Below are positions 2,712-8,516 of a DNA stretch of 33,149 nt, one piece after another. Origin of the DNA: a virus. Taxonomy: Duplodnaviria > Heunggongvirae > Uroviricota > Caudoviricetes. Numbering within the stretch: position 1 is the stretch's first letter; each line of letters starts with the position of its first letter. A program made the translations under genes and the position numbers. The DNA lies in the IMG/VR virus record IMGVR_UViG_2526164669_000028. One strand, 5' to 3'. Below the pieces are notes generated by a model, which ran no database searches, was not told where the DNA came from, and saw nothing but the letters and a program-made list of their open reading frames with translations.

Positions 2712-3010
2712 TGTCCTGTTCTCATTCAGTTGTATTACTGAATAACGCCTTAAAAATCGCCGTTATGAAAAATGGCGATTTGTCTCTTATTCAACTTTGT
2801 CTTGATAAAGAAAAACGCGACATCACTGAATCTGTTATCGCGATTTATCAGAATGAATTAAACCTCCTGTCTGATGTGGTCAATTTACTTGTTAAACGCG
2901 CTGTATTCCACAAGCAAATTTCCTCAGTGGATGAACTGACAAAATTAACGACAGAACTTGCCAGTTATTGCGCTGATGTATCCAGGCAACTTAACGATAA
3001 AAGGAGCTGA
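2708..3010 (+). CDS. Hypothetical early protein (P2 orf81-like)
   Basis: 100-aa ORF, ATGA overlap with the upstream gene; synteny. Confidence 0.65.
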
Positions 3011-3012
3011 TA

Positions 3013-3237
3013 ATGCCGGACAACGTAGATTTTATTCAGGAACAACAGGCTGAATTACTGGAGCGCCAGATTAACGCGGCAAGGGTAAAACATTGCGGTG
3101 CTTCTGCGCTGGTTTGCGAAGAGTGTGACGCGCCAATACCTGCTGCCCGTCGTGCGGCTTACCCGTCAGCCACGCGTTGTGTTTCCTGTCAGTCAGTCTT
3201 TGAAGCAAAAAACAAACATTACCGGAGAACGGCATGA
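3013..3237 (+). CDS. C4 zinc-finger protein (TraR/DksA-like; P2 orf82-like)
   Basis: 74 aa with CEEC...CVSC four-cysteine motif; AAGGAG RBS upstream; synteny. Confidence 0.7.
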   Translation: MPDNVDFIQEQQAELLERQINAARVKHCGASALVCEECDAPIPAARRAAYPSATRCVSCQSVFEAKNKHYRRTA

Positions 3238-3509
3238 GTATTCGTATTGAAATTGGCGAACGTTATGTCGTTACCGGTGACAGCTTCCAGTTTATTCTCC
3301 ACGAGAAAAAGAGAGCGGAAAGCGGTAAAAACGCCGGTCAGGAATGGCTGGCGGTGGTTGGTTATTACCCGAAATTAAGCCAGCTCGTTTCCGGCCTGAT
3401 GCATCACGATATTCTGACCGGAAGCGCAAAGTCTTTTGCTGATTTAAACGCGCAGGTTGAGCAACTCAGCAAGCGTTGTTCAGAGGCTTTTGGCTCATAT
3501 GGCCGTTAA
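3234..3509 (+). CDS. Hypothetical early protein (P2 orf83-like)
   Basis: 91-aa ORF, ATGA overlap with upstream gene; its 3' end overlaps the A start. Confidence 0.65.
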   Translation: MSIRIEIGERYVVTGDSFQFILHEKKRAESGKNAGQEWLAVVGYYPKLSQLVSGLMHHDILTGSAKSFADLNAQVEQLSKRCSEAFGSYGR

Positions 3510-5787
3510 AGCCTCCGGGCGTTTTGTCCCTCCGTCAGCATTTGCTGCAGGCACCGGTAAGGCGTTTACCGGTGCTTATGCATGGAACGCGCCACGCGAG
3601 GCTGTCGGGCGCGAAAGACCCCTTACACGTGACGAGATGCGTCAGGTGCAAGGTGTTTTATCCACGATTAACCGCCTGCCTTACTTTTTGCGCTCGCTGT
3701 TTACGTCACGCTATGACTACATCCGGCGCAATAAAAGCCCGGTGCACGGGTTTTATTTCCTCACATCCACTTTTCAGCGTCGTTTATGGCCGCGCATTGA
3801 GCGTGTGAATCAGCGCCATGAAATGAACACCGACGCGTCGATGCTGTTTCTGGCTGAGCGTGACCACTATGCGCGCCTGCCGGGAATGAATGACAAGGAG
3901 CTGAAAAAGTTTGCCGCCCGTATCTCATCGCAGCTTTTCATGATGCATGAGGAACTCAGCGATGCCTGGGTGGATGCGCATGGCGAAAAAGAATCGCTGT
4001 TTACGGATGAGGCGCAGGCTCACCTCTATGGTCATGTTGCTGGCGCTGCACGTGCTTTCAATATTTCCCCTCTCTACTGGAAAAAATACCGTAAAGGACA
4101 GATGACCACGAGGCAGGCATATTCTGCCATTGCCCGTCTGTTTAACGATGAGTGGTGGATTAGTCAGCTTAAAGGCCAGCGTATGCGCTGGCATGAGGCG
4201 TTACTGATTGCTGTCGGGGAGGTCAATAAAGACCGTTCTCCTTATGCCAGTAAACATGCCATTCGTGATGTGCGTGCACGCCGCCAGGCAAATCTGGAAT
4301 TTCTTAAATCGTGTGATCTCGAAAACAGGGAAACAGGCGAGCGCATCGACCTTATCAGTAAGGTGATGGGCAGTATTTCTAATCCTGAAATTCGCCGGAT
4401 GGAGCTGATGAACACCATTGCCGGTATTGAGCGTTACGCCGCCGCAGAAGGTGATGTGGGGATGTTTATCACGCTGACCGCGCCGTCAAAGTATCACCCG
4501 ACACGTCAGGTTGGAAAAGGCGAAAGTAAAACCGTCCAGCTAAATCACGGCTGGAACGATGAGGCATTTAATCCAAAGGATGCGCAGCGTTATCTCTGCC
4601 GTATCTGGAGCCTGATGCGCACGGCATTCAAGGATAATGATTTACAGGTCTACGGTTTGCGAGTCGTCGAGCCACACCACGACGGAACGCCGCACTGGCA
4701 TATGATGCTTTTTTGTAATCCACGCCAGCGTAACCAGATTATCGAAATCATGCGTCGCTACGCGCTCAAAGAGGATGGCGACGAAAGAGGAGCTGCGCGA
4801 AACCGTTTTCAGGCAAAACATCTTAATCGGGGCGGTGCTGCGGGGTATATCGCGAAATACATCTCAAAAAATATCGACGGCTATGCACTGGATGGGCAGC
4901 TCGATAACGATACCGGCAGACCGCTGAAAGACACTGCAGCGGCTGTTACCGCATGGGCGTCAACGTGGCGTATCCCGCAATTTAAAACGGTTGGTCTGCC
5001 GACAATGGGGGCTTACCGTGAACTACGCAAATTGCCTCGCGGCGTCAGCATTGCTGATGAGTTTGACGAACGCGTCGAAGCTGCACGCGCCGCCGCAGAC
5101 AGTGGTGATTTTGCGTTGTATATCAGCGCGCAGGGCGGGGCAAATGTCCCACGCGATTGTCAGACTGTCAGGGTCGCCCGTAGTCCGTCGGATGAAGTTA
5201 ACGAGTACGAGGAAGAAGTCGAGAGAGTGGTCGGCATTTACGCGCCGCATCTCGGCGCGCGTCATATTCATATCACCAGAACGACGGACTGGCGCATTGT
5301 TCCGAAAGTGCCGGTCGTTGAGCCTTTGACTTTAAAAAGCGGCATCGCCGCGCCTCGGAGTCCTGTCAATAACTGTGGAAAGCTCACCGGTGGTGATACT
5401 TCGTTACCGGCTCCCACACCTTCTGAGCACGCCGCAGCAGTGCTTAATCTGGTTGATGACGGTGTTATCGGATGGAATGACCCGGAGGTCGTGAGGGCGC
5501 TCAGGGGCGCATTAAAACACGGCCTGAGAACATCAAATCGTCAGCAAAGAAACGGAAGCCCGTTAAAACCGCATGAAATAGCACCATCTGCCAGACTGAC
5601 CCGGTCTGAACGATTGCAAATCACCCGTATCCGCGTTGACCTTGCTCAGAACGGTATCAGACCGCAGCGATGGGAGCTTGAGGCGCTGGCGCGTGGGGCA
5701 ACCGTAAATTATGACGGGAAAAAATTCACGTATATGGTTACTAATGAGTGGTTCGGATTTCAAGATGAAGTGTCATTTTTCATGTAA
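3499..5787 (+). CDS. A: Replication initiation endonuclease gpA (rolling-circle nickase)
   Basis: ORF 3457..5787; start set at MAVKASGRFVPP (3499), matching the recalled P2 A N-terminus; 762 codons versus 761 aa in P2; HxH-type motif (HHDGTPHWHMM) present. Confidence 0.92.
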   Translation: MAVKASGRFVPPSAFAAGTGKAFTGAYAWNAPREAVGRERPLTRDEMRQVQGVLSTINRLPYFLRSLFTSRYDYIRRNKSPVHGFYFLTSTFQRRLWPRIERVNQRHEMNTDASMLFLAERDHYARLPGMNDKELKKFAARISSQLFMMHEELSDAWVDAHGEKESLFTDEAQAHLYGHVAGAARAFNISPLYWKKYRKGQMTTRQAYSAIARLFNDEWWISQLKGQRMRWHEALLIAVGEVNKDRSPYASKHAIRDVRARRQANLEFLKSCDLENRETGERIDLISKVMGSISNPEIRRMELMNTIAGIERYAAAEGDVGMFITLTAPSKYHPTRQVGKGESKTVQLNHGWNDEAFNPKDAQRYLCRIWSLMRTAFKDNDLQVYGLRVVEPHHDGTPHWHMMLFCNPRQRNQIIEIMRRYALKEDGDERGAARNRFQAKHLNRGGAAGYIAKYISKNIDGYALDGQLDNDTGRPLKDTAAAVTAWASTWRIPQFKTVGLPTMGAYRELRKLPRGVSIADEFDERVEAARAAADSGDFALYISAQGGANVPRDCQTVRVARSPSDEVNEYEEEVERVVGIYAPHLGARHIHITRTTDWRIVPKVPVVEPLTLKSGIAAPRSPVNNCGKLTGGDTSLPAPTPSEHAAAVLNLVDDGVIGWNDPEVVRALRGALKHGLRTSNRQQRNGSPLKPHEIAPSARLTRSERLQITRIRVDLAQNGIRPQRWELEALARGATVNYDGKKFTYMVTNEWFGFQDEVSFFM

Positions 5788-6195
5788 AACACTTTAAAAT
5801 TCAATGCAATGAAAGCATATCCATGTCTCATTGATATGCCTTTCAGTTATTATATATTTGTTTTATATGAAAAAATATCATATGCAGGGGGAGCAAATAC
5901 AACGGTTTACTTGTTATGATGCAAACATTGGTTAGTTAGTGAGATATATCGCCATCAATTGGGTATTTTTACCCGTGGAAAGTTAACGCTTTCTAACACT
6001 TACCCCGCGCAACGCCCCTGCCAGCGACAGGAGTCACAGGATCAGGAGGTATGGCGTATGGGTATTCGAACCCTTTGGGCGACCAAGGGTTCGTGGAGCA
6101 GGGGGCTAGTGCTGTTCAATCTCATCCTTATGAGGGCGAACCATAGTGTTGGAGCAGACATACCGTTTGCACACTATGGGCATAAGGAGCAAATC
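5788..6195 (+). ncRNA. Candidate structured non-coding leader (possible retron msr/msd RNA) upstream of the RT cassette
   Basis: About 400-nt AT-rich non-coding gap after A. Hairpins: GCATATC...GATATGC (5817-5840), GAACCCTT...AAGGGTTC (6067-6091), CCATAGTGT...ACACTATGG (6141-6178, 9-bp stem). Boundaries and function are not resolved by eye. Confidence 0.25.
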
Positions 6196-6351
6196 ATGAA
6201 GAATGATAAATTAACCAACGAACAGCAGGCGCAGAACAAGTCAAACCTGAAAAAGTGGGCTGGTTACGCTTGGAAATTAATCAAATGGGGTATTAGACTG
6301 TTTGATTTAGTTACTCGAGCACTGGACTACTTCGAAGGGGGTGATGAGTAA
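6196..6351 (+). CDS. Small hypothetical protein (51 aa), first ORF of the RT cassette
   Basis: ATG preceded by AAGGAG at 7 nt spacing; MKNDKLTNEQQAQNKSNLKKWAGYAWKLIKWGIRLFDLVTRALDYFEGGDE. The annotated 5959..6351 ORF is treated as a spurious 5' extension. Could instead be part of the ncRNA. Confidence 0.4.
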   Translation: MKNDKLTNEQQAQNKSNLKKWAGYAWKLIKWGIRLFDLVTRALDYFEGGDE

Positions 6352-6375
6352 TGCGTCCTCCCTAGTTTCAATAGC

Positions 6376-6696
6376 ATGGAGTTGCCTATGTTACATAAAG
6401 CCCTTCGTTTAATAAGGCAATACCATAAAGAATCAATAGTTGAGTTATCTTCATCTTTAGGTATTCCAAAAGACAAAATAGTATCGCTTGAAAGCGGAGT
6501 TTGGTCACCGTCGATTGAAGTCTTAGAGCGTTACGCCTCCCATTTCGACATACCAGTATCCTCTTTAGTATTCTTTTCGGAATCATTAGGCACGCAAGGC
6601 CGTTTGTCTAAGCGATTGCGTTTAAATTTAGCCGGTAAAGTTCTGGATGTTCTGGAGTGGGTAAGTAATAAAAATGAAAAAACGGAAAAAGCTTAA
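6376..6696 (+). CDS. XRE-family helix-turn-helix protein associated with the retron-type RT
   Basis: 106 aa; HTH signature (...IVELSSSLGIPKDKIVSLESGVWSPSIEVLERYASHF...); overlaps the RT start by 23 nt, suggesting co-translation. The start may be the second ATG at 6388. Confidence 0.7.
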   Translation: MELPMLHKALRLIRQYHKESIVELSSSLGIPKDKIVSLESGVWSPSIEVLERYASHFDIPVSSLVFFSESLGTQGRLSKRLRLNLAGKVLDVLEWVSNKNEKTEKA

Positions 6697-7624
6697 AGTT
6701 AATACTAAAAATAAATCTTATGACATAATGGATTCGCCATTTTATAAACTCAAAAGTAAAAGAAAACTGGCGAATTTGCTTTGTGTTAGTCTTGATGATT
6801 TATACTCTTTGAGAAAAGATGAAGGAAACTATTCCGTTTTTGAGCAGCTTTCTAAAAAAGGGAAAGCACGAAAAATACAAAAGCCTTTAGAAAAACTAGA
6901 ACTTGTACATACACGAATTGCAAGTTTGTTATCGCGGATTGCTTTGCCAGAATATCTGCACTCAGGGAAGAAGAAGTGCTCTAATGTGACGAATGCTAAA
7001 GCTCATCTTAATAATGAAAAGATGATGACAACAGATATTAAAGCTTTTTTTCCATCAACTACAAGAGGGATGATATTTTCTTTTTTCTTTTCGGTGATGA
7101 AAATGTCATCTGATGTTGCTGATGTTTTGTCCCACATATGTACTTGTCATGACCGATTGCCAACAGGTAGTCGAATCAGTATGCCGTTGGCATATTTTGC
7201 AAATTCAAGAATGTTTGGTGAAATATATCAACTTTGCCAAAAGTTACGAGTTAACATGACTGTTTATGTTGATGATCTCACTTTTTCAGGTAGTAACGTA
7301 AATCGATTGTTCTGCGCTGTAATTCGTAAGATCGTTAATAAGCATGGGCATGTTATACACCCAACGAAAACAAAACTATATGCCAGAGATAAGCCTAAGT
7401 TGGTAACTGGAGTTATTGTATTAGGCAATGCATTAAAAGTTAGGAATGAGCAGCATTTTTTGATGGCTAGGGAAATAGATTATTGGAAAATAATTAAAGA
7501 CGCCGAAAATGCGAGAGAAACAATCATTGCCAAAAAGCTCTTTGGTCGTTTGCATTCAATGGGAGTGATTGAGCAACGTTACAAATCTAAGGTGCTTACT
7601 TTAAAGGCTAATACTGCAAATTAA
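6674..7624 (+). CDS. Retron-type reverse transcriptase (316 aa)
   Basis: Contains NAKAH (NAxxH), DIKAFFPST, LPTGSRISMPLA (LPQG-like), YVDD catalytic motif and VTG triplet (KLVTGVIV); the order and spacing resemble recalled retron RT Ec86. AT-rich relative to the phage backbone. Confidence 0.85.
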   Translation: MKKRKKLKVNTKNKSYDIMDSPFYKLKSKRKLANLLCVSLDDLYSLRKDEGNYSVFEQLSKKGKARKIQKPLEKLELVHTRIASLLSRIALPEYLHSGKKKCSNVTNAKAHLNNEKMMTTDIKAFFPSTTRGMIFSFFFSVMKMSSDVADVLSHICTCHDRLPTGSRISMPLAYFANSRMFGEIYQLCQKLRVNMTVYVDDLTFSGSNVNRLFCAVIRKIVNKHGHVIHPTKTKLYARDKPKLVTGVIVLGNALKVRNEQHFLMAREIDYWKIIKDAENARETIIAKKLFGRLHSMGVIEQRYKSKVLTLKANTAN

Positions 7625-7670
7625 CATATTGAATGTATTGCATAATAGCATCAATAATGAAAATGACTTT

Positions 7671-7722
7671 GGCGTTAGTAACGCCGCCAGTGCAGGAATT
7701 TACTTTCGGTGCAGGCGGCGTT
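7671..7722. terminator. Hairpin cluster between the convergent RT and 145-aa genes (putative bidirectional terminator)
   Basis: AACGCCGCC (7680-7688) pairs with GGCGGCGTT (7714-7722), a 9-bp stem; nested GGCGTTAGTAACGCC element at 7671-7685. Confidence 0.35.
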
Positions 7723-7748
7723 GATTAGAAACCTCAGAAAGTAGTTAG

Positions 7749-8186
7749 CTATGAAGCTGACGTCACAAAATTAACACCAAGAGTCAACAGGTTTGTCACT
7801 GCTCCAGCAATGACACCTGGAGTCCCGTCTTTTACTGCACTGATAATTTTATCTCCCATCGTTTCATTACCGCCAAGTGCTTCGGGTTTTTTGTTGAGCA
7901 CCGCGAGTGCTTTCTCGGTCAGGCGCACATCATGAAAACCAGTCTGATGGTCTGTTCCGTACAGAATATAGCCGTTTTCGCTTAGGAAAGTGAATGTGCC
8001 ATCAACCACACTACGCAACTGATTCAGTGCTTTCATTTCTGGTGAGTTAAGTTGGTCAAAGTAGTCATCAGGTAACGCGGCGTTAAATTTTTTGTAGGTG
8101 ATGACTTGTGGTACAGGAAAGTTATCCCATAGCACCGCAAAGATTTCAGCCGTCTGCTGGTTAAATAATTCGAGGTTTTTGGACAT
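7749..8186 (-). CDS. Hypothetical protein (145 aa) with Gly/Ala-rich hydrophobic C-terminus; cargo gene convergent to the RT cassette
   Basis: Minus ORF with AAGGG RBS 7 nt upstream; C-terminal ...DGTPGVIAGAVTNLLTLGVNFVTSAS suggests a membrane-interacting tail; AT-rich. Confidence 0.6.
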   Translation of the reverse strand: MSKNLELFNQQTAEIFAVLWDNFPVPQVITYKKFNAALPDDYFDQLNSPEMKALNQLRSVVDGTFTFLSENGYILYGTDHQTGFHDVRLTEKALAVLNKKPEALGGNETMGDKIISAVKDGTPGVIAGAVTNLLTLGVNFVTSAS

Positions 8187-8379
8187 GCATAATTCCCTTT
8201 CATCAATTAAAGACCCTTATGCCGACTGGGCAAAGAGACTCACTGTAATGGCCTCAAATAACGACCTGAGTTCCCGCGAAGTGGAAAGCTACACCGAAAA
8301 AATGGTCGAGCAAGCCAGTAAAGATGAGCTTACGGTCGTTATCAAACACCTTTTAAACCACATCAGAATGAACAAATAA
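8185..8379 (+). CDS. Small hypothetical ORF (65 aa)
   Basis: Internal Met of ORF 8098..8379; GAGG about 9 nt upstream; its start overlaps the start codon of the divergent 145-aa gene, so it may not be real. Confidence 0.3.
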   Translation: MHNSLSSIKDPYADWAKRLTVMASNNDLSSREVESYTEKMVEQASKDELTVVIKHLLNHIRMNK

Positions 8380-8516
8380 AAGGATCTTTATCAATATGTT
8401 ATCTCTCGTTTATGAAAATCCGTGGACGACGGTTTTTTTGCTGATTGTAGCCACTTGTTGCCTTACCAGTATTATTGGCGCATTGCGCGACAAGTAACCA
8501 CAATGAAGCTGACTCA

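Follow-up and report, generated by a model that had tools for sequence, protein, structure and literature searches.

In phage P2, old and tin occupy the region between gpA and gpQ, which has been described as a P2 hotspot (Rousset et al. 2022, PMC9122126). We asked what a P2-like E. coli prophage carries in this slot, next to cos, and how that cargo may act, in a window of 33,149 nucleotides (the whole stretch of DNA analysed here). An initial annotation had described an AT-rich insert in the tin/old slot encoding a retron-type reverse transcriptase (RT) of the 'type VI' class, an overlapping helix-turn-helix (HTH) gene, a 51-aa open reading frame (ORF) and about 400 nt of structured non-coding DNA, and had suggested an anti-phage role. 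The insert and its slot were borne out by base composition (GC 0.34–0.41 over 6400–7800 vs 0.50–0.57 in gpA), by the flanking gpA gene at 3457–5787 (Pfam Phage_GPA, E 5e-123) and by the published hotspot, and the ORFs and RT motifs were all found where it had placed them. All cassette features described below are on the plus strand. P2 old and tin share this cos-adjacent gpA–gpQ slot (PMC9122126) but are single-protein exclusion genes, unrelated to the retron in the window.

The RT belongs to the Type VI retron group

In a profile search with the 316-aa protein encoded at 6674–7624, as the initial annotation had proposed, the best match was PADLOC RT_VI (E 4.1e-105, 349 bits, profile positions 1–278 of 279). 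The next-best PADLOC model reached 152 bits (E 5e-45), and all 25 listed of the 37 PADLOC models matched were retron RT models, as were the families in three of three NCBIfam matches. The translation contains the motifs NAKAH (residues 107–111), DIKAFFPS, LPTG, YVDD (198–201) and VTG (244–246), and N107, A108, H111, Y198–D201, T245 and G246 are invariant among 24 RT homologues. The protein is 54% identical to the RT of Retron-Vpa2, a Type VI retron of Vibrio parahaemolyticus (Zhang et al. 2025, bioRxiv 10.1101/2025.10.22.683967).

We took the definition of Type VI from the classification of Mestre et al. 2020, in which the RT falls in the Type VI group of retron RT clade 3. The window RT is placed there by its profile match together with the lineage label of an RT accession, WP_000746343.1, that is listed with the window's small-protein and HTH accessions in P2 hotspots (PMC9122126). 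In the Type VI tree of a second study it carries the label 'Large_WP_000746343.1', and the 'Large' lineage there is that of Vpa2 (10.64898/2026.04.27.721009). The assignment of the RT to the 'type VI' class in the initial annotation is thus upheld by the RT_VI score and by an HTH_VI match in the adjacent gene.

P2-like coliphages carry a different functional RT at the same locus (Odegrip et al. 2006, as cited in PMC9122126), and the Pfam RVT_1 match of the window RT is marginal (31.4 bits). Both points would fit an RT of a non-retron defence or mobile class (Abi-P2 as in P2-EC30, DRT/UG, group II intron or DGR), with the upstream structure and ORF being incidental. The profile scores argue against such an assignment, at 349 bits for RT_VI and at most 152 for any other model, as do the retron identity of all the PADLOC models listed and all the NCBIfam matches and the invariant NAxxH and VTG motifs. 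So does the upstream RNA, which covaries strongly and keeps its synteny with the RT in different genera. Neither an intron-type maturase or endonuclease domain nor a DGR template/variable repeat pair was found at the retron RT, a 316-aa protein too small for extra domains; Abi-P2 is set apart from it by profile scores only. We consider a non-retron RT already effectively refuted, with next to no probability left to it.

An HTH gene and a small-protein gene precede the RT

Directly upstream of the RT gene, and overlapping it by 23 nt, lies a Cro/C1-type HTH gene (6388–6696). Its product matched PADLOC HTH_VI over profile positions 1–91 of 92 (E 7.7e-31), gave weak matches to Pfam HTH_3, HTH_19 and HTH_31, and is 48% identical to the Vpa2 HTH protein. 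The ORF and its overlap with the RT gene had been described correctly, but the start had been put at 6376, which would give 106 aa. The gene probably starts at ATG 6388 (102 aa), because GGAG at 6378–6381 is 6 nt upstream of this codon, the RefSeq start agrees and the Vpa2 HTH start matches.

The 51-aa ORF at 6196–6351 (SP) completes the canonical SP–HTH–RT order of Type VI retrons. Its ATG at 6196 sits inside a longer mechanical ORF (5959–6351). Among six relatives, the SP frame is open and of equal length, while the other two frames carry three to eight stops. Nearly all Type VI loci that we examined have a small basic-plus-hydrophobic ORF directly 5′ of the HTH gene, and SP–HTH–RT synteny is kept across dozens of loci. 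The window SP, annotated as WP_001302990.1, matches phrog_15287 and is 24% identical to the SP of Vpa2. We considered and dropped an equation of window SP residues K15, V39, L43 and Y45 with the sites mutated in Vpa2, which requires a 4–5-residue indel in the alignment; when the alignment is anchored at the C terminus, Vpa2 I39, F43 and F45 correspond to L35, V39 and R41 of the window SP.

SP toxicity has been shown for Vpa2 (10.1101/2025.10.22.683967) and for Retron-Sen3 (10.64898/2026.04.27.721009), and by homology the 51-aa ORF would be the 'small protein' toxin effector of Type VI retrons. The initial annotation had recognized this ORF while contrasting the class with 'effector-carrying' types. 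That contrast does not stand if the toxin effector is encoded by this small ORF, since the Type VI class is then not 'effector-less'.

Two further genes, of 145 aa and 64 aa, lie downstream. We rejected them as retron accessories: only the closest relatives (RT identity of 85% or more) have them, and other genes take their place in the P2_2H1, Yersinia, Acerihabitans and Vibrio loci. The gap between RT and the convergent gene downstream of it contains a GC-rich hairpin of ~13 bp at 7675–7716 (AACGCCGCC...GGCGGCGTT, from a fold of 7620–7750), a possible terminator without a U-tract; the overall z of this fold is only −1.7.

A predicted, covarying hybrid RNA includes the SP gene

In the alignment with relatives, non-coding conservation starts at ~5926. 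From there, nhmmer, folding and covariation delimit a structure of 449 nt (5927–6375), which consists of an msr–msd-like 5′ arm, a riboregulator arm, an SP coding arm and a 3′ inverted repeat. Folding of 5930–6380 gave −162.9 kcal/mol (z = −5.7), and none of 100 shuffles was as stable. We compared homologues by nhmmer, RNAalifold and pair counting, using an alignment of 596 columns. The whole ~460-nt block was recovered in 44 loci, Vpa2 included (locus L085, matched full length, E 4.5e-78). Across 23 non-redundant homologues, 85.4% and 87.2% of cells were paired, compared with 40–48% in slid controls, and 66 of the 96 pairs showed compensatory changes. The covariation score was 0.33–0.34, against at most 0.15 in controls; these values were reached by 0 of 500 shuffles, and RNAalifold independently recovered the main helices. 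An Rfam scan of 5000–9000 (E up to 1) returned no family covering this structure; a match to a Bacteroides sRNA was set aside as chance, being on the opposite strand and scoring 28.8 bits where the gathering score is 228.9.

These results confirm that the DNA ahead of the genes is structured, as had been proposed, but conservation begins well after the position 5788 first given for it. Nor does the structure end before the small ORF, as had been supposed; it continues through SP to ~6375. The non-coding RNA and the small ORF would then form one hybrid RNA (hyRNA), by homology with relatives for which such an RNA has been published.

Upstream of ~5910, six relatives that we aligned diverge, except for one conserved motif, TGtTATGAT, at 5912–5920. 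We regard this motif as a putative extended −10 promoter element, from which a transcript would start at ~5927. A generic promoter scan also returned TTGATA-16-TATATT at 5831–5858, which we did not take as the main promoter because its sequence is not conserved. The RNA-fold search for msr/msd proposed earlier found a covarying msr–msd-like structure with a1/a2-like pairing: RNAalifold predicts UGAGAU at 5940–5945 as the 5′ arm of a terminal helix with 6365–6370 (94.9% of cells paired). Covariation of this helix is weak because its columns are mostly invariant or G-U. Two small msr-like hairpins follow at 5961–5974 and 5976–5995 (5961–5995 together), in which 97% and 91% of cells were paired and four of five and four of eight pairs, respectively, were compensatory. 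The predicted msd (6001–6093, with boundaries taken from minimum-free-energy (MFE) helices) comprises a long stem-loop (6001–6064), with a tip that varies in length and sequence among relatives, and a hairpin (6067–6093). Their predicted sizes of 64 and 27 nt parallel the 63-nt and 86-nt msDNA of Vpa2, which were mapped to a long stem-loop together with one of 23 nt to its right (10.1101/2025.10.22.683967).

The riboregulator arm (6110–6227) is closed by a helix of 6110–6117 with 6220–6227 that is paired in 100% of cells and has five compensatory pairs. Around this arm and the SP arm, MFE folding pairs 6094–6105 with 6358–6370 as a long-range inverted repeat. In its core, GGGGG/CCUCC (6101–6105 with 6358–6362), all cells are paired and four of five pairs are compensatory, and the 3′ arm (6358–6370) is the most conserved intergenic stretch. 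Within the riboregulator, an anti-RBS (6125–6132) and the SP ribosome-binding site CAUAAGGA (6181–6188) form an 8-bp helix (87% and 73% paired among homologues), and MFE helices place direct repeat 2 at 6134–6144, a hairpin at 6141–6179 and a hairpin around the AUG at 6193–6207. Both the SP RBS and AUG 6196 are thus predicted to be sequestered in stems, as in Vpa2. Conservation of this arrangement is moderate, and the anti-RBS helix was absent from the RNAalifold consensus.

The loop of the 6067–6093 hairpin contains direct repeat 1, GGGCGACCAA (6077–6086), which has GGGCGA in common with 6134–6139. The two copies are identical over 6 nt (6077–6082 and 6134–6139) and agree at nine of ten positions with one indel. 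They change together across taxa, reading GGACGAA twice in Vpa2, AGGCGAA twice in locus L016 and GGCGACACCC twice in locus L019. As in Vpa2, a conserved direct repeat is thus found in both the msd loop and the riboregulator loop.

The state of the prophage bears on whether such a cassette is still active. Relative to strain JJ2434, the portal gene (~8892–9935, minus strand) has a 1-nt insertion in a T-run. Because of this frameshift, if real, the prophage may be defective, and one could suppose that the retron is a decayed or silent remnant that is no longer expressed or functional. The insertion lies in a homopolymer and may be a sequencing error, and defence cargo works independently of prophage viability. 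All three retron ORFs are intact and share 99.7–100% identity with copies from other E. coli strains, a cluster of 169 members is headed by this very RT sequence, and every RNA element is intact. We consider a remnant very improbable.

The cassette resembles Retron-Vpa2

We identified locus L085 as Vpa2 because its SP sequence equals that of Vpa2 in Table S3 of 10.64898/2026.04.27.721009; it also matches the residues mutated in Vpa2 (SP K15, I39, F43 and F45; HTH R7). The Vpa2 accession WP_069548583.1 was not found among the listed accessions of the P0075 cluster. The window and Vpa2 share the order hyRNA–SP–HTH–RT, a hyRNA that aligns over its full length, a three-arm fold closed by inverted repeats (449 nt here and ~470 nt in Vpa2), an RBS and AUG in stems, a 3′ repeat that folds back and the pair of loop repeats. 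Their SPs are of similar size (51 aa and 55 aa), with a C-terminal F-(D/E)-G-G-D end in both. They differ in the repeat itself (GGGCGA, 6 nt perfect, vs GGACGAA, 7 nt), in the sequence and length of the msd tip, and in context: the window element is in a P2-like prophage hotspot, whereas Vpa2 is at a chromosomal site by hipA and rpoD in Vibrio.

In component identity, RNA architecture, covariation and repeat pair, the window contains what a Type VI retron of this kind comprises. We consider it fairly probable that this P2-hotspot cassette is defence cargo in the form of a complete Type VI retron, that it belongs to the 'Large' (Vpa2/Eco12-like) lineage and that it acts by a Vpa2-type mechanism. 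The working model is transferred from Vpa2: homology supplies the trigger, the phenotype, what HTH and SP do, and where the transcript and the msDNA begin and end. A single promoter at ~5912–5920 would drive a ~450-nt hyRNA followed by HTH and RT. The 5′ arm of the hyRNA would provide the msr–msd template (msd ~6001–6093). [quoted passage not shown] HTH, RT and hyRNA would together keep SP silent, with HTH restraining reverse transcription, msDNA low and SP untranslated. On infection, phage recombination proteins (lambda Beta plus Exo in Vpa2) would lead to accumulation of msDNA, and the loop copy at its 5′ end (the complement of GGGCGACCA) would pair with the second repeat, GGGCGAACCA (6134–6143), beside the anti-RBS. 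This pairing would free the RBS, the small hydrophobic toxin SP would be made and the infected cell would stop growing (abortive infection). Hybridization of msDNA with the riboregulator is still a hypothesis in the source preprint (Zhang et al. 2025, 10.1101/2025.10.22.683967). The anti-phage role suggested initially gains support by analogy from defence by the relatives Vpa2, Eco12 and Sen3.

A second mechanism has been described within Type VI. Retron-Sen3 of Salmonella enterica, from the cl2075 lineage, defends against lambda, and escape mutations map to the Red operon (Garcia-Rodriguez et al. 2026, bioRxiv 10.64898/2026.04.27.721009). Transferred to the window, this mechanism would have SP and ssDNA made constitutively and SP neutralized post-translationally by the HTH protein as antitoxin. 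The system would fire when a phage inhibits RecBCD, the trigger being the full lambda Red module including Gam, with the ssDNA level unchanged. Sen3 has the same SP–HTH–RT layout as the window, its SP, too, lies within a conserved structured RNA and is flanked by a long-range repeat, and its authors stress mechanistic diversity within Type VI (10.64898/2026.04.27.721009). In Vpa2 and Sen3 alike, toxicity follows when HTH is lost, and the HTH protein binds RT; because both systems have these properties, an antitoxin contribution of HTH against SP may exist here as well. Sen3 differs from the Vpa2 type in its constitutive ssDNA and SP, its post-translational control and its need for Gam and RecBCD inhibition. 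The SPs of cl2075 (~79 aa; 79 aa in Sen3) are extended by 25 aa at the N terminus and have an amphipathic helix at the C terminus, whereas the window SP has 51 aa and lacks the extension. The RT accession associated with the window elements is labelled 'Large', with Vpa2, and not '2075', and the window hyRNA aligns with that of Vpa2 over its full length and keeps the Vpa2-type repeat pair. In addition, Retron-Eco12, the E. coli Type VI retron that has been tested, had no detectable baseline msDNA, unlike Sen3. We therefore regard control of the Sen3 kind as unlikely here and retain the Vpa2-type model.

Eco12 defended against lambda vir, with msDNA undetectable (10.1101/2025.10.22.683967). Its likeness to the window element, in being an E. 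coli Type VI retron, was compared by description only; plausibly, Eco12 is this element or its ~82–86% identical E. coli variant. More distant are the Type IV and V retrons (Retron-Eco6 and Retron-Sen1), sister clades in retron RT clade 3 that have lambda Red/Gam-region triggers in common with Type VI. They differ in making abundant msDNA that acts as antitoxin, in being triggered by Gam alone and in having neither a hyRNA-encoded toxin nor an HTH partner.

The fold also contains alternative pairings. GUUUCA at 6365–6370 has two competing, near-identical partners, UGAGAU at 5940–5945 and UGGAGC at 6094–6099, and the extreme 5′ end (5928–5937) can pair with SP codons 5–8 (6209–6218). These mutually exclusive pairings could conceivably form a conformational switch in which reverse-transcription priming and the opening of the SP start region are coupled, a proposal from modelled folds that we rate as distinctly doubtful.

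Discussion

The element in the window is not new: it has been catalogued before, and there are detailed experimental studies of close relatives. Its HTH sequence is printed in Table S5B of Rousset et al. 2022 as system 26, labelled 'Type-VI retron' with a listed count of 132, and the accessions of SP, HTH and the neighbouring 145-aa protein are listed in Table S5A (PMC9122126). The authors left this P2-hotspot Type VI retron out of their tests (PMC9122126). There is no new biology here beyond the literature of 2022–2026. Such a Type VI cassette on a P2-like prophage is present in 99 of 5,426 complete E. coli genomes (~2%), O157:H7 strains included. RefSeq labels its products 'hypothetical protein', 'helix-turn-helix domain-containing protein' and 'reverse transcriptase family protein'; the msd and the toxin ORF are merged in some phage records.

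Recognition of the cassette is useful for annotation and is relevant to the prediction of host range in phage therapy. The usual logic of retrons is reversed in Type VI: msDNA turns the toxin on instead of keeping it off. The toxin is, moreover, encoded in the very RNA that templates reverse transcription. The conformational switch, if true, would add to or replace the simple model of msDNA-loop hybridization, and a P2-borne E. coli retron would then be a convenient native-host system in which to dissect it.

A Type VI retron in the gpA–gpQ region of a P2-like prophage

The window is a P2-like prophage, with replication gene A at 3457-5787 (Pfam Phage_GPA, E = 5e-123) and the portal and terminase genes on the minus strand, leftward from ~8892. 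Three plus-strand ORFs lie between them: a 51-aa ORF (6196-6351; SP, a predicted toxin), a Cro/C1-type HTH ORF (6376 or 6388 to 6696, probably starting at 6388) and a 316-aa reverse transcriptase (RT; 6674-7624). As the initial annotation had proposed, the HTH ORF precedes the RT ORF and overlaps it, by 23 nt, and the insert past gene A is AT-rich (GC content 0.34-0.41 across the HTH and RT genes, compared with 0.50-0.57 in gene A). The proposed placement in a P2 defence hotspot also agrees with published work (Rousset et al. 2022, PMC9122126) that defines the gpA–gpQ region as such a hotspot and places old and tin there in P2.

It is near certain that this locus is a Type VI retron. RT matched the PADLOC model RT_VI from end to end (E = 4.1e-105, 349 bits; the runner-up, RT_III-A, scored 152 bits), all 25 of the PADLOC matches listed were retron RT models, and HTH matched HTH_VI across the whole profile (E = 7.7e-31), which upholds the 'type VI' HTH-plus-RT class first suggested. 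NCBIfam returned retron families only, every match under its cut-off, and in Pfam the RVT_1 match to RT was marginal and the HTH matches were weak. The retron RT motifs listed initially are all present, and none of them varies across 24 aligned homologues. A group II intron, DGR or Abi RT is ruled out by these profile results, in which all the PADLOC matches listed and all the NCBIfam matches were retron models.

Several other features were observed in this part of the prophage. A 14-nt inverted repeat with a 3-nt spacer (AAAGCATATCCATG / CATTGATATGCCTT, 5812-5842) overlaps the TTGATA -35-like hexamer of a promoter-like site (5831-5858); it is situated 5' to the conserved retron block, is only partly common to the phage P2_2H1, and could be an operator or a piece of a cargo recombination junction. 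Beyond the retron is a divergent pair of genes encoding proteins of 145 aa (7749-8186, minus strand, phrog_2266; conserved at 87-100% identity) and 64 aa (8185-8379, plus strand, phrog_2454; 62-100%). With start codons that overlap on the two strands (CATG, 8184-8187), these genes leave no intergenic space for promoters, and the pair looks like separate hotspot cargo because it accompanies the retron only in the closest E. coli and Klebsiella relatives. The minus-strand portal gene Q (~8892-9935) has one T more than strain JJ2434 in a homopolymer at ~9122-9128 (GGCTTTTTTTGATATT), which leaves a 275-aa and a 102-aa ORF in place of the 344-aa gene; this reflects either a defective prophage or an error in sequencing or assembling the run.

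A conserved RNA runs through the small ORF

The region upstream of and through the SP ORF folds with an energy of -162.9 kcal/mol (z = -5.7 against shuffled sequence). The structured DNA noted earlier upstream of the small ORF is thus borne out, but its extent is not: the structured element runs from ~5926/5927 through the ORF to ~6375. In an alignment of six relatives, conservation begins abruptly at ~5926, and upstream of this point only TGtTATGAT (5912-5920), a possible extended -10 element, is conserved. The SP ORF is open and of equal length in six relatives, the other two frames containing 3-8 stops, and PHROG gives it a separate family, phrog_15287. Nearly every Type VI locus examined has, directly upstream of HTH, a comparable small ORF that combines a basic N-terminal half with a hydrophobic C-terminal helix.

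The minimum-free-energy structure of 5927-6375 (plus strand) has a pair of small hairpins (5961-5974, 5976-5995) and a long stem-loop (6001-6064), the tip of which differs between relatives in both length and sequence, followed by a perfect hairpin (6067-6093); 6094-6105 and 6358-6370 form a long-range helix. The riboregulator arm is enclosed by a helix of 6110-6117 with 6220-6227, which contains a predicted anti-RBS/RBS pairing (6125-6132 with 6181-6188), a hairpin at 6141-6179 and another that covers the AUG (6193-6207); the remaining SP coding sequence forms a further arm (6228-6357). This predicted fold has the three-arm layout described for the hybrid RNA (hyRNA) of Retron-Vpa2 in 10.1101/2025.10.22.683967.

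With an HMM trained on 14 of these RNAs, we recovered the whole ~460-nt block from 44 fetched loci, 23 of which, non-redundant at 97% identity, were aligned. Standard pairs filled 85.4% of cells, compared with 41-48% when partners were slid by 1-3 columns; two-sided changes occurred in 66 of 96 pairs (28-50 in the slid controls), and the covariation score was 0.339 (at most 0.151). None of 500 shuffles matched any observed value. The best-supported helix in the hyRNA is 6110-6117/6220-6227, paired in 100% of cells with five compensatory pairs.

RNAalifold, which works independently of the fold of the window itself, also recovered the core helices, but paired the 3' GUUUCA (6365-6370) with UGAGAU at 5940-5945 instead of 6094-6099. 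With this partner 87.2% of cells pair, and 94.9% in the terminal helix; the two partners are indistinguishable because the terminal-helix columns hardly vary. In addition, 5928-5937 can pair with SP codons 5-8 (77% paired, compensatory changes in 8 of 10 pairs); as it crosses other helices, this pairing would represent either a pseudoknot or an alternative conformation. Only these competing 3'-repeat pairings and the 5'-end/SP-codon pairing were not found described in the accessible text of the Type VI papers.

The SP frame is also open far upstream across the predicted msd, both in the window (5959-6351 or 6058-6351) and in a related locus, L002 (2767-3159). In this stretch the phage record NC_049386 has a 130-aa 'hypothetical protein', and an extended SP form underlies phrog_5826 (97 aa); in both, the gene call probably reaches too far upstream and so hides the ncRNA. 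The most conserved SP residues, (E/D)-Q-Q (codons 9-11, 6220-6227), are encoded by GAACAGCA, which pairs with 6110-6117, and their conservation may partly reflect RNA structure instead of protein function.

Relation to Retron-Vpa2

The closest characterised system is Retron-Vpa2. Among the RT relatives that we fetched as loci for comparison, the V. parahaemolyticus locus L085 has a 55-aa SP with exactly the Vpa2 sequence given in Table S3 of 10.64898/2026.04.27.721009, and carries the residues mutated in Vpa2 (SP K15, I39, F43 and F45; HTH R7). This makes L085 either Vpa2 itself or an almost identical copy. The window proteins are 54% (RT), 48% (HTH) and 24% (SP) identical to those of L085, and the cassette differs from Vpa2 in its divergent SP, repeat sequence, msd tip and prophage context. 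The preprint gives the Vpa2 catalytic mutant as YADD-to-YAAA (10.1101/2025.10.22.683967); the L085 RT (3001-3960) reads YVDD, which is invariant in all 24 aligned RT homologues, and matches Vpa2 in every other respect; YADD is probably shorthand in the paper.

Zhang et al. 2025 (10.1101/2025.10.22.683967) describe Vpa2 and briefly E. coli Retron-Eco12, which may be the same element as the window cassette. They report a 7-nt direct repeat, GGACGAA, in the Vpa2 msd and riboregulator loops and propose that it mediates SP release by msDNA. In the window, the loop of hairpin 6067-6093 is GGGCGACCAA (6077-6086), and GGGCGAACCA recurs at 6134-6143, immediately 3' of the predicted anti-RBS. Across the 23 homologues both copies change in concert: GGACGAA twice in Vpa2, AGGCGAA twice in L016 (a Cellvibrio MAG) and GGCGACACCC twice in L019 (Acinetobacter), as would be expected if a DNA copy of repeat 1 must base-pair with repeat 2. 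The Vpa2 msDNA is given there as 63 nt over the long stem-loop, or 86 nt with the adjacent 23-nt stem-loop. By analogy we predict an msd at ~6001-6093, which would put the repeat-bearing hairpin at the msDNA 5' end.

What the sequence comparisons show is the components of the cassette with their order and overlaps, a conserved RNA architecture with the RBS and AUG in stems, and a co-varying repeat pair. By analogy, a Vpa2-type mechanism is somewhat favoured: HTH, RT and hyRNA would form a complex in which HTH represses reverse transcription; sensing of phage recombination proteins would let msDNA accumulate and open the SP start region; and SP would then be toxic, causing abortive infection. 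Post-translational control as in Salmonella enterica Retron-Sen3 seems unlikely. In that cl2075-lineage system, according to Garcia-Rodriguez et al. 2026 (10.64898/2026.04.27.721009), ssDNA and SP are constitutive, HTH is a protein antitoxin and RecBCD inhibition is the trigger; the window SP is without the ~25-aa N-terminal extension of cl2075 SPs (79 aa). An inactive cassette or some other mechanism takes the small remainder.

Earlier cataloguing and spread

The window HTH sequence is printed in Table S5B of PMC9122126 as system 26 (listed count 132, 'Type-VI retron'). That row joins it to an RT starting MKSAEYLNTFRLRNLG with YADD, not to the window RT. The mismatch may be a table mix-up, or may have arisen because systems were grouped by Pfam arrangement. 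The RT in question resembles Retron-Eco1/Ec86.

The cassette is widespread. Query 5700-7800 (the cassette together with flanking DNA and ~90 bp of gene A) was at least 80% contained in 99 of 5,426 complete E. coli genomes, many of them O157:H7. Copies ~85% identical occur in Peduovirus P2_2H1 and Klebsiella phages, and Yersinia enterocolitica has a 71%-identical RT in the equivalent gpA–portal slot. Table S5A of PMC9122126 contains a WP_001302990 + WP_001310277 + WP_000746343 + WP_000042038 arrangement, in which all but the third accession belong in RefSeq to, respectively, the SP, the HTH and the neighbouring 145-aa protein of the JJ2434 locus, which is 99.8% identical to that of the window. 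The Type VI tree of 10.64898/2026.04.27.721009 carries the RT accession under the name 'Large_WP_000746343.1', and that paper also places Vpa2 in the 'Large' lineage. Profile scores, homology to Vpa2 and published accession labels assign the cassette to this Vpa2-like lineage. Together, the Vpa2 homology, the Rousset tables and the 'Large' label identify the cassette as an already catalogued Type VI retron, a known element whose features all fall within published knowledge.
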